Made by a program: the position numbers and the translations under genes
Assembly: GCA_951812955.1 (NCBI GenBank)
Contig: OX638340.1
Coordinates: forward strand, 3,456,001-3,520,000
Direction of reading: 5' to 3'
Source: an uncultured Gemmatimonadota bacterium
GTDB lineage: Bacteria; JAAXHH01
Length of the DNA: 64,000 nt
In this document: piece after piece, positions 14,414 through 16,807 of the stretch
Numbering within the stretch: position 1 is the stretch's first letter
Layout: every line of letters begins with the position of its first letter
The notes under the pieces: model-generated
The model's database searches: none
Told to the model about the DNA's origin: nothing
Seen by the model: only the letters and a program-made list of their open reading frames with translations

Positions 14414-16807
14414 ATGTCGAGCATGGCGGAACTCAGGCGGGAGAATGACGCATTGCGCAAGAGCATCTCCACACTGAATTCGGCCAGCCTGCGCATCAGC
14501 GCAAGCCTGGACCTCGAGACCGTCTTACATGAGGTGGTGGAAAGCGCCTGTGCGCTGACCCAGGCCCGTCACGGCGCTATCGCAACGATGGACCAGGGGG
14601 GCCGGCCCATCGACTTTTACACTTCCGGACTCTCGGACGCAGCGCGACAGCAGTTGTTGGACTGGCCGGATGGTACAAGACTCTTTGAGCATTTCCGCGA
14701 CCTGCCAGGCGCGCTGAGACTGGCAGACGTGCGGGAATACGTTTGCTCGCTGGGCTACTCCCCGGATCTGCTACCGTTCAAGACCTTCCTGTGCATGCCG
14801 ATGCGTTATCGTGCCCTGCACGTCGGCAGCTTTTTTCTCACCGACAAGGAGGGCGGTGAAGATTTTACGGACGAGGACGAGGAGTTCCTCGTACTGTTTG
14901 CGTCGCAGGCCGCTACGGCGATTGTCAATGCCCGCACATACCGGGCGGAACAGCGCGCACGTGCCGACCTCGAAGCCCTGGTCGAGACCTCGCCGGTTGG
15001 CGTGGCGGTCTTCGACGCCGGAACAGGCCGGCCAAGTCGGTTCAATCGTGAGGCGAGACGGATCGTGGAGGTCCTGCTCACACCGGGAAGTCAGCCGGAG
15101 ACCTTGTTGGAACAGGTCACATTGAAGCGAGCCGACGGGCGTGAGATTGCGCTGGATCAGTTCCCGTTGTCGCAGGCACTGATCCACGCCGAGAACGTAC
15201 GGGCCGAGGAGATGGTGCTCTCTGTACCCGACGGACGTTCCGTCGCGACACTGGTCAACTGCACGCCTATACATTCGGAGGAAGGTGAGGTCATGTCCGT
15301 TGTCATCACGATGCAGGACCTGGCGCCGATACAGGAAATGGAACGGCTGCGGACAGAGTTCATCAGCATGGTAAGTCATGAACTGCGAGCCCCCCTCACC
15401 TCCATCAAGGGCTCGGCAGCCACTCTGATGGAAGCATCTCCTGGAATCGATCCCGCGGAGACGCGTGAGTTCTACCGCATTATCATGGAACAGACCGACC
15501 ATATGCGCAGGCTGATCAGCGACCTGCTGGATGCGGGCCGCATCTACACGGGCACGCTGTCGGTAGCGTCCGAGGCTTCTGAAGTCTCCGCACTGGTCGA
15601 CCAGGCGCGAAGCACGTTCCAGAGCGGGGGCAGCAAGCACACCCTCCTGATCGATCTCCCCCATGACCTGCCGAGTGTCATGGCCGATCGCGCGCGCATC
15701 ATACAGGTGTTGAACAATCTGCTCGTCAATTCCGCGCGGCATGCTCCAGAGTCCTCACCCATCCTGGTCTCCGCCGAGCACGACGGCCCGCATGTTACGA
15801 TTTCGGTACGCGATGAAGGCAGCGGCGTGGCGCCGGAAATGCTGCCGCACCTGTTTCAGAAGCACGGCGGACCCGACCGCCGCGACCGCTCTTCAAATAC
15901 GGCAGGCACGCGGCTGGGGCTTGCCATATGCAAAGGGCTCGTCGAGGCCCATGGAGGGCGTATCTGGGCAGAGAGCGCGGGCATCGGCCAGGGTACGTGC
16001 ATTACTTTTACAATTCCGGTAGCCCAGAAGTCAGTTGCCGCCGATCGCGGATCGGTTCGGACAGAATCGCATGGCAAAGACGAAGATATCAAACCGACAC
16101 GCATACTCGTGGTCGACGACGACCCACAGATGCTACGGTACATTCGGGACGTCCTCACGGAAACCGGTTACGACCCGATCGTAACCGGCGACCACGTCGA
16201 ACTGTCGAGCATCATTCGGGCCGAAAAACCCGAACTGGTCCTGCTGGACCTGCTGCTACCCGATACAGATGGAATCGAGCTGATGGGAAGCGTATCCGAA
16301 CTCTCCGATATCCCTGTCATCTTCATCTCGGCCTACGGACGAGATGAAACCATCGCGAAGGCGCTGGAACACGGAGCGGACGATTACCTGGTCAAGCCTT
16401 TCTCGCCTACGGAACTCGTGGCAAGGATACGGACGTCGCTGCGCAGGCGGGTGGATCCCGAACCGTTTCTGCTGGGTGACCTCGCCATCAACTACGACAG
16501 ACGCCTGGTGAGCGTGGCCGGCGACCAGGTCGATCTCACCGCCAAGGAGTACGAATTGCTGCGCGTGCTTTCCCTGAATGCCGGCCGGGTGTCGACGTTC
16601 GATGCCCTGATTCGCCAGGTTTGGGGCGTGTATGGATACGCCAACCACAAGCTTGTGCGCAGCCTGGTAAAGTCACTCCGGCGCAAGATCGGGGACGATG
16701 CACGCGCTCCCGACTACATTTTCAACGTGCGCGGGATCGGGTACCGGATGGCACGGCCCGCGGAACTCGAGGTGGAATCCCAAACATCGGAAGTCTCTTC
16801 GTATTAG
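14414..16807 (+). CDS. hybrid one-component regulator: GAF/PAS sensor - HisKA - HATPase_c - REC receiver - OmpR-type winged-helix DNA-binding domain
   Basis: RBS GGGAGAG. The N-terminal region is GAF-like (SASLRISASLDLETVLHEVVESACALT...). The H-box is VSHELRAPLTSIKG. The ATPase N/G boxes are VLNNLLVNSARHA...VRDEGSGVAPE...GTRLGLAICKGLVEAHGGRIWAES. The REC domain is ILVVDDDPQMLRYIRDVL...VLLDLLLPDTDGIEL...ISAYGRDE...GADDYLVKPF. The Trans_reg_C domain is LTAKEYELLRVLSLNAGRVSTFDALIRQVWG...IFNVRGIGYRM. Confidence 0.85.
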   Translation: MSSMAELRRENDALRKSISTLNSASLRISASLDLETVLHEVVESACALTQARHGAIATMDQGGRPIDFYTSGLSDAARQQLLDWPDGTRLFEHFRDLPGALRLADVREYVCSLGYSPDLLPFKTFLCMPMRYRALHVGSFFLTDKEGGEDFTDEDEEFLVLFASQAATAIVNARTYRAEQRARADLEALVETSPVGVAVFDAGTGRPSRFNREARRIVEVLLTPGSQPETLLEQVTLKRADGREIALDQFPLSQALIHAENVRAEEMVLSVPDGRSVATLVNCTPIHSEEGEVMSVVITMQDLAPIQEMERLRTEFISMVSHELRAPLTSIKGSAATLMEASPGIDPAETREFYRIIMEQTDHMRRLISDLLDAGRIYTGTLSVASEASEVSALVDQARSTFQSGGSKHTLLIDLPHDLPSVMADRARIIQVLNNLLVNSARHAPESSPILVSAEHDGPHVTISVRDEGSGVAPEMLPHLFQKHGGPDRRDRSSNTAGTRLGLAICKGLVEAHGGRIWAESAGIGQGTCITFTIPVAQKSVAADRGSVRTESHGKDEDIKPTRILVVDDDPQMLRYIRDVLTETGYDPIVTGDHVELSSIIRAEKPELVLLDLLLPDTDGIELMGSVSELSDIPVIFISAYGRDETIAKALEHGADDYLVKPFSPTELVARIRTSLRRRVDPEPFLLGDLAINYDRRLVSVAGDQVDLTAKEYELLRVLSLNAGRVSTFDALIRQVWGVYGYANHKLVRSLVKSLRRKIGDDARAPDYIFNVRGIGYRMARPAELEVESQTSEVSSY

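Follow-up and report, generated by a model that had tools for sequence, protein, structure and literature searches.

Can a sensor histidine kinase work with a complete OmpR-type response regulator as one soluble protein? The question is raised by a gene at positions 14414-16807 (plus strand; copy 1) of a 64,000-nucleotide stretch of contig OX638340.1 from an uncultured Gemmatimonadota bacterium, called the window below, and by its paralog at 30881-33259 (plus strand; copy 2). In textbook two-component signalling the sensor and the regulator are separate, and among studied systems with a DNA-binding output only the AraC-type, membrane-bound hybrid of Bacteroides departs from this. A first-pass annotation of the window had read both genes as GAF/PAS-HisKA-HATPase_c-REC-Trans_reg_C polypeptides without transmembrane segments and had proposed a self-contained cytoplasmic signal-to-transcription device. 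Its factual description of the proteins proved right on every point. Because each product is one soluble polypeptide with its phosphotransfer residues intact and its gene stands alone, the self-contained device is also the best reading. We put the probability at roughly 70% that the copies are soluble, homodimeric, fused two-component systems, in which a cytoplasmic signal would lead through His322 and Asp612 to receiver pairing and DNA binding.

Copy 1 is a single open reading frame (ORF) of 797 codons that starts with ATG immediately 3' of a purine-rich, Shine-Dalgarno-like AAGGGAGAG and contains no stop codon or frameshift. Copy 2 encodes 792 residues from the ATG at 30881, within an ORF extending over 30764-33259, and is likewise uninterrupted, so that kinase and regulator are fused in both genes. 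The two proteins are identical at 407 of 786 positions (52%) in an alignment that begins at residue 1 of each. A database record (P0001) is 100% identical to copy 1; exact look-up of copy 2, with either start codon, returned no matching record.

Pfam profiles identified six domains above the gathering score in copy 1, all on the plus strand and in the annotated order: GAF (residues 32-170; 14507-14923), PAS (185-302; 14966-15319; E 5e-7), HisKA/DHp (313-377; 15350-15544; E 6e-16), HATPase_c (425-537; 15686-16024; E 6e-27), a Response_reg receiver (564-673; 16103-16432; E 1e-25) and an OmpR/PhoB-type winged helix, Trans_reg_C (703-779; 16520-16750; E 1e-19). The same six domains are present in copy 2, each above the gathering score. 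The winged-helix output claimed for the C terminus is supported, as the match in copy 1 covers profile positions 1-77 of 77. Residues 538-563 (16025-16102) form a flexible tether between kinase and receiver. Kyte-Doolittle 19-residue windows revealed no membrane segment in either copy, the highest means being 1.23 (copy 1) and 1.16 (copy 2), in agreement with the predicted absence of transmembrane segments.

The conservation of functional residues was followed in two alignments, one of 118 close homologs and, separately, one of 46 chosen ones (64-86% identity for both sets). The phospho-accepting His322 of copy 1 lies in the H-box SHELRAPL of HisKA (codon 15377-15379) and is kept in 118 of 118 close homologs. 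The HATPase_c domain retains the invariant N-box residues N435 and N439, D467, G469 and G471 of the G1 box, and G502 of the G2 box. In the receiver, the acidic pocket (D568/D569), the phospho-acceptor Asp612 (codon 16247-16249), S639, the switch residue Tyr658 and K661 are all invariant. Copy 2 has the same string of key residues as copy 1, with every catalytic residue intact; the H-box His and the receiver Asp are thus present in both copies and invariant in the 118 homologs. Retention of all phosphotransfer and ATP-binding residues in both copies and in these homologs argues for purifying selection on catalysis in this branch of the family.

The regulator half carries the marks of an OmpR-family protein. 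On the alpha4-beta5-alpha5 face D657, E667 and R671 are invariant and R677 is nearly so, and the segment GADDYLVKPFSPTELVARIR is almost identical to the corresponding segment of PhoB. According to PMC9981736, ionic residues of beta5 and alpha5 distinguish the OmpR-like receivers that form dimers once activated. W737, R749, R756 and G776-Y777-R778 of the winged helix are also invariant. The receiver alone finds its best matches in the Protein Data Bank (PDB) among the OmpR-family receivers MtrA, BaeR and PhoB. Together with the winged helix it matches full-length MtrA (E 6e-42), as well as BaeR and KdpE, and the kinase half matches HK853 at about 1e-34. By its residues, then, the receiver is a genuine OmpR/PhoB-type terminal receiver, and as judged from sequence each half taken alone is a normal HisKA kinase or a normal OmpR-family regulator.

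No partner was found for either half. In five unrelated contexts the fused gene stands alone, with no kinase, regulator or Hpt gene adjacent to it. Among about 20 larger ORFs of the window that were scanned there were no other two-component proteins, and no Hpt domain was detected in the fused protein or in the scanned neighbours. The annotated term 'one-component' does not apply in its usual sense; given that all of the phosphotransfer residues are present, 'fused two-component system' is the appropriate description.

From these data we propose the following mechanism. We would expect a parallel dimer organised along a helical spine, in which the N-terminal helix, GAF and PAS are joined to DHp by long helices. 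A cytoplasmic signal acting at GAF/PAS would set the state of the kinase, and the HisKA/HATPase core is predicted to autophosphorylate on His322. The phosphoryl group would then pass to Asp612 within the same dimer, either in one chain or across the two, the receiver being carried on a disordered linker of about 25 residues. Phosphorylation would flip the S639/Y658 switch. The two receivers of the dimer would leave DHp and pair through their alpha4-beta5-alpha5 faces (D657, E667, R671, R678). This would place the winged helices head to tail on direct-repeat DNA, probably including the promoter region of the gene itself. As tethering supplies one regulator per kinase, such a pathway would need no partner gene and would be insulated, with no amplification. 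Insulation without co-evolved recognition has been argued for tethered systems in references cited by PMC11253607, and in the tethered Bacteroides hybrid systems DNA binding depends on phosphorylation (PMC11253607).

A fused ORF could also be produced by error, if a kinase gene and an adjacent regulator gene, as in kdpDE, were merged in sequencing or assembly by the removal of a stop codon. On a Rhizobium plasmid kdpD and kdpE share a frame and are separated by only 13 nt, so that a single error could mimic a fusion. However, the same fusion occurs in the two paralogs of the window, which differ at half of their residues, and in a large family from many assemblies. A close-homolog search of 5.8 billion proteins, with the best 120 clusters listed (64-100% identity), gave more than 115 clusters with the architecture of copy 1 from end to end, nearly all of about 785 residues and with the same Pfam set; several of these come from megabase-scale contigs. 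Running HMMER exhaustively against 1.84 billion cluster representatives (50% identity) extended the family. Of the best 150 matches (P0142-P0291), about 100 are end-to-end (roughly residues 5-782 of the query) at 35-60% identity. What is more, the linker between kinase and receiver is translated and partly conserved, with a length of 21-50 residues (median 26) in the homologs. The breadth of these independent occurrences refutes the artefact, to which we give practically no weight. The likeness to plasmid-borne KdpD/KdpE (~38%) was rejected as a sign of specific ancestry, since it reflects database content.

The relatives include orthologs in Candidatus Latescibacterota metagenome-assembled genomes (82-86% identity), members from Gemmatimonadota and Zixibacteria, and one from an Azotimanducaceae gammaproteobacterium (56%). 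Genomes often contain two or three paralogs. In longer relatives the HisKA-HATPase-REC-Trans_reg_C core follows two GAF domains, five PAS domains, MEDS and three PAS domains, or GAF and three PAS domains. The architecture had been called unusual, and relative to the systems that have been studied it is; it is nevertheless shared by about 100 clusters at 50% identity in metagenomes. In their source records family members carry generic names, 'response regulator' or 'ATP-binding protein'. Every NCBIfam match to the fused protein fell below the curated cut-off, a Foldseek search of the PDB gave matches to individual domains and no solved chain with the whole architecture, and a full-text literature search found no published description of a kinase-REC-winged-helix fusion. 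The family is abundant but undescribed, without a curated family, solved structure or paper of its own.

Several observations weigh against the proposed pathway. In about one third of the more distant representatives the His, the Asp or the residues for ATP binding are gone, whereas those for DNA binding are kept. Of the best 150 HMMER matches, 103 representatives have coverage at every key column, and 54 of these retain the whole set of His, Asp, ATP-binding residues and acidic pocket. His322 is lost in 36, with Q, R, E, D, S, N or Y in its place and frequently with losses of N, G1 and G2 residues as well; Asp612 is lost in 17. W737/R756/Y777, in comparison, are kept in 102 and E667/R671 in all 103. 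The residue at H+4 is a second point. Thr or Asn at this position is needed for phosphatase activity in bifunctional HisKA kinases. Both copies have Ala326 there, and Ala or Val is found in 99 of the 118 close homologs (A 69, V 30, T 11), so the tethered kinase may be a poor phosphatase and signal reset may differ from that of classical systems. The H+4 Ala bears on bifunctionality and not on membership among HisKA kinases. Finally, the AlphaFold2 (AF2) monomer of copy 1 has a predicted TM-score (pTM) of 0.47 and is not reliable for the arrangement of the domains.

The lost residues bring in another explanation, in which the protein is a phosphorylation-independent one-component regulator, the kinase core serves as a dimeric scaffold for conformational coupling, and the His and Asp are dispensable or vestigial. 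The local alignments at the lost His are unambiguous (for example GMVSQELRAPLTSIKGS against SMVSHELRAPLTSIKGS), a rough neighbour-joining tree shows 12 or more changes in the state of the His, and a few members (P0147, P0219) lack the entire ATPase domain. The degenerate third of the family implies that the scaffold can work, or at least persist, without phosphotransfer. Both copies of the window, however, fall in the intact part of the family; neither they nor any of the 118 close homologs have lost a phosphotransfer or ATP-binding residue, and we regard this explanation as improbable for them. About equally improbable is that the copies are ordinary hybrid kinases in a phosphorelay or branched network, with the receiver as an intermediate or sink, other regulators or paralogs being phosphorylated, and the copies cross-talking or heterodimerising. 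The beta4 strand might point to such a role. It reads F-I-S-A-Y in both copies, and in the 118 homologs the F and S are always kept, position 640 is G or A in 116 (G 63, A 53) and the Y is kept in 115; characterised OmpR-family receivers have M-[LV]-T/S-A-K/R. The family F-x-S-[GA]-Y is similar to FxSGY, the 'FATGUY' motif that PMC9981736 describes in receivers that exchange phosphate with DHp or Hpt partners, and a comparable function is putative. The frequency of paralogs would also fit a network, as would the existence of His-less paralogs that retain Asp612 and could be phosphorylated in trans. On the other hand, there is no Hpt domain in the fused protein and no Hpt or regulator gene nearby, and, unlike an intermediate, the receiver has dimerisation residues of the OmpR type together with a fully conserved output domain.

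We therefore keep the fused, phosphotransferring system as the preferred reading for the two copies. For the family as a whole, the residue losses suggest that after fusion signalling can continue without phosphotransfer, or that intact paralogs serve the His-less copies in trans. More tentatively, and at somewhat less than even odds, the family would be a large class of soluble hybrids with OmpR-type output in which the receiver mixes the marks of an intermediate and of a terminal receiver, tethering has made phosphotransfer dispensable, and the passage from two-component to one-component signalling is recorded, the copies of the window being still phospho-competent.

What the sensor region might detect was considered from its closest structural match. 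The GAF domain matches the haem-binding GAF-A domain of Mycobacterium tuberculosis DevS over 146 residues (PDB; E 3e-23). With residues counted from the DevS sequence within the GAF alignment, the position of the haem-ligating His149 is occupied by Leu119 in copy 1 and Ala in copy 2, and among 118 homologs by R (57), L (55), P (3), A (2) or V (1), with His in none. Copy 2 has a His one position before this column, where His occurs in 3 of 118 sequences. The distal Tyr171 of DevS is Phe in both copies and either Y (62) or F (56) in the family. Nor did the alignment of 46 homologs contain a conserved His or Cys across GAF. DevS-type haem sensing was rejected because the equivalents of His149 and Tyr171 are not kept, and the signal would be another cytoplasmic one. 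Actinomycete loci (L006-L024) were examined as possible split relatives and set aside; they match in GAF, with only a weak receiver match, and are DevS/DevR-like pairs.

In the AF2 monomer of copy 1 the individual domains are confident (mean predicted local distance difference test score, pLDDT, 77.8). The N terminus, GAF, PAS and DHp are connected by long helices (residues 4-29, 153-191 and 303-323), and the PAS fold leads straight into the DHp helix; these linking helices are similar to those of other soluble GAF/PAS kinases. Residues 539-558, within the tether, are disordered, with pLDDT below 50.

The closest known kind of protein is the Bacteroides hybrid two-component system (HTCS), for example BT4124 (PMC11253607), which also combines kinase, receiver and DNA-binding output in one polypeptide with no partner gene, and for which tethered phosphotransfer, insulation of the pathway and output domains held on a constitutive kinase dimer would be shared features. 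The HTCS are, however, membrane proteins with a large periplasmic sugar sensor and an AraC/HTH_18 output, whereas copies 1 and 2 are soluble, with GAF-PAS sensing and an OmpR-type winged helix (Trans_reg_C). DNA-binding domains on a constitutive dimer must be kept off, which in Bacteroides is achieved through contact with an S/C-H-I-P motif in the alpha3-beta4 loop (PMC11253607). Copy 1 has SDIP and copy 2 has SERP in this loop, as is ordinary in the OmpR family, so any restraint of the DNA-binding domain must differ from that in the HTCS. By predicted function the copies work like a hybrid two-component system, but they lack three of the four features that define the HTCS. The 'HyTCS' proteins of Lysobacter (HtsH) are located in the membrane and have sensors of the Reg_prop/Y_Y_Y type, and Trans_reg_C is not listed among their domains.

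The copies share with MtrB/MtrA, PhoR/PhoB, KdpD/KdpE and HK853/RR468 a HisKA/HATPase_c kinase, a PhoB-like alpha4-beta5-alpha5 face and the wing motif G-x-G-Y-R. Kinase and regulator of classical OmpR/PhoB pairs are separate proteins in every characterised system, whereas a disordered tether of about 25 residues connects them here; further distinctions of the fused family are its beta4 F-I-S-[GA]-Y and the Ala or Val at H+4. DevS/DosS and DosT of Mycobacterium resemble the copies in GAF only, as their kinase class and output differ from the HisKA and OmpR types found here. DivL is a pseudo-kinase, and HP1043, ChxR and GlnR are atypical, phosphorylation-independent OmpR-family regulators. The degenerate relatives of the copies are like them in having lost His or Asp while keeping the fold and the DNA-binding residues. 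DivL, HP1043, ChxR and GlnR are separate proteins, however, whereas the degenerate halves of the fused family stay joined, and the copies of the window are not degenerate. With the hybrid kinases CckA, ShkA, ArcB and TorS the copies have in common the order of kinase then receiver, and their beta4 resembles FATGUY, but the receivers of those kinases have no output domain and no OmpR-like dimerisation and pass their phosphate to Hpt. MiST-type rules would class the fused protein as a hybrid histidine kinase, and hybrid-kinase receivers are intermediates by definition (PMC9981736). In the same study a CtrA-type receiver profile found no kinases with such a C-terminal receiver (PMC9981736); the fused family is an exception to that statement.

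If the proposed reading is true, the tethered design arose independently with other modules, and the family provides a natural test of how an OmpR-type regulator, with its symmetric receiver dimer and direct-repeat sites, operates while tied to a kinase dimer. It would also offer synthetic biology a potentially useful single-gene device, compact and free of cross-talk, that leads from sensor to promoter. The relatives, in which phosphorylation residues have been lost repeatedly, form a concrete data set for asking whether fusion makes phosphotransfer less necessary. For the source genome, two orphan regulators have been identified.

We also asked where the winged helix might bind. Footprinting across five orthologous loci identified an AT-rich block 120-195 bp 5' of copy 1 (14220-14293, plus strand) as the best-conserved non-coding stretch. 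It contains ATGTAGATTGTGTGTACAAT, a direct TGTr-N7-TGTr repeat with an 11-bp phase. The block is a reasonable candidate, and no more, for a promoter or an autoregulatory site. The 20-mer ATGTAGATTGTGTGTACAAT was rejected as a regulon motif since the window holds no second copy. Scans for sigma-70 promoters and terminators around copy 1 gave fewer matches than shuffled sequence.

Half-sites of the OmpR family are phased by roughly one helical turn (~10-11 bp). The first-pass annotation had pointed instead to arrays of 13-bp repeats as sites for the winged helix. These pyrimidine-rich tandem arrays, with units of 13-14 bp, lie together with an 18-bp array at 6229-6289, 6332-6382, 33256-33309 and 33342-33476, and their units, CCGTTCCTCTCTA (4.7 copies), ATTCTTCAGGCAT (3.3), CACGCACATTCCT (4.1) and CGCATCCCTTACG (5.8), differ in sequence from one array to another. 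One set, located between convergent genes, begins just past the end of copy 2, whose stop codon is overlapped by the 18-bp array (three units); the other is 5' of an unrelated minus-strand coiled-coil gene. The arrays thus have no support as operators, although they might still be bound: the units are not alike, the location is wrong, the orthologs have few or no such repeats beside them, and the period is off the 10-11-bp phasing.

A separate repeat of about 100 nt occurs between genes on the plus strand, at 6396-6499, 6580-6679, 6675-6777, 11821-11925, 13754-13865 and 17238-17350, and at 3651-3735 of the sister locus L001 (nhmmer E-values 2e-28 to 3e-19), with the consensus ACGACGTGTCTGTTAT..GTAAyAGTCGGAGyC..TCTCGAACTTTTTTT..AAAAGTTCyGTTACCTCGTTCCT... 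It is always 5' of a plus-strand gene (two leucine-rich repeat (LRR) genes, copy 1 and a thiolase gene) and is absent near copy 2. Rfam gave no family anywhere in the window, this repeat included. The repeat may act as a promoter or leader common to the genes that follow it, or represent a small mobile element or an RNA. A 33-bp tandem duplication (two units, 94% match) at 17430-17496 lies just 5' of the thiolase start codon.

The 3' fragment that had been annotated at 5560-5797 is real, and is a dead, frameshifted remnant of a copy-1-like gene spanning 5545-5797 (plus strand). Its DNA from 5545 to 5767 shares 82% identity with 16556-16777 but changes frame by one base, and the remnant ORF (5645-5797), whose last 50 codons are open, matches Trans_reg_C positions 48-77 only. 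Comparison with sister loci shows how this site is related to copy 1. In the Latescibacterota loci L001-L004 the ortholog of copy 1 lies 3' of an acyl-CoA-synthetase-like gene (1527-3848 in the window) and precedes the thiolase gene (17537) or a small coiled-coil gene (5850-6227); its upstream neighbours encode a small lipoprotein or an amine oxidase. In L003 and L004 an intact gene occupies the site of the remnant and is followed by sequence matching window 5797-6246, which here follows the remnant. The ancestral flank is separated from intact copy 1 by a block (4168-13514) with three lipoprotein genes of the LRR/Big_2 type. Compared with L002, L003 and L004, this block is a lineage-specific rearrangement that left a frameshifted 3' regulator copy at the ancestral site. 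Duplicated short segments mark the rearrangement junctions (5461-5500 resembles 6183-6222, and 5825-5902 resembles 3868-3945). One LRR/Big_2 protein of the block has 1618 residues and an M66-like peptidase region.

The annotated adjacency to LRR lipoprotein genes holds for both copies, with LRR/Big_2 genes at 4168-5343, 6894-11750 and 11907-13514 near copy 1 and at 34537-41769 after copy 2, but it is not conserved in L001-L004. It is to be expected from gene density, with six such genes in 64 kb, and as a lineage-specific rearrangement it is not evidence of co-regulation. A functional link was rejected, there being no LRR gene beside the orthologs in L001-L004. Two Gemmatimonadota-like or unassigned contigs with the fused gene have as its neighbours an ABC transporter, a LysR gene, a copper oxidase, insertion sequence (IS) elements and group II intron reverse transcriptases.

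The six genes for lipoproteins with LRR and bacterial-Ig domains are those at 4168-5343, 6894-11750, 11907-13514, 34537-41769, 41799-43454 and 52382-54145 (minus strand); one of the proteins has 2410 residues, with a 72-bp repeat periodicity. The window also encodes a collagen-repeat protein (23067-24599) and a Calx-beta/autotransporter-like protein (26693-30154). Together, the LRR, collagen and Calx-beta genes give the impression that eukaryote-like surface proteins have expanded here, which would be expected in a symbiont of marine invertebrates. Small coiled-coil genes on the minus strand lie directly 3' of the remnant (5850-6227) and of copy 1 (16848-17093). The former contains 33-bp tandem repeats that encode REEMREEHAAI-like units and has a weak CCDC90-like match, and its homolog comes after the intact regulator gene in L003 and L004.

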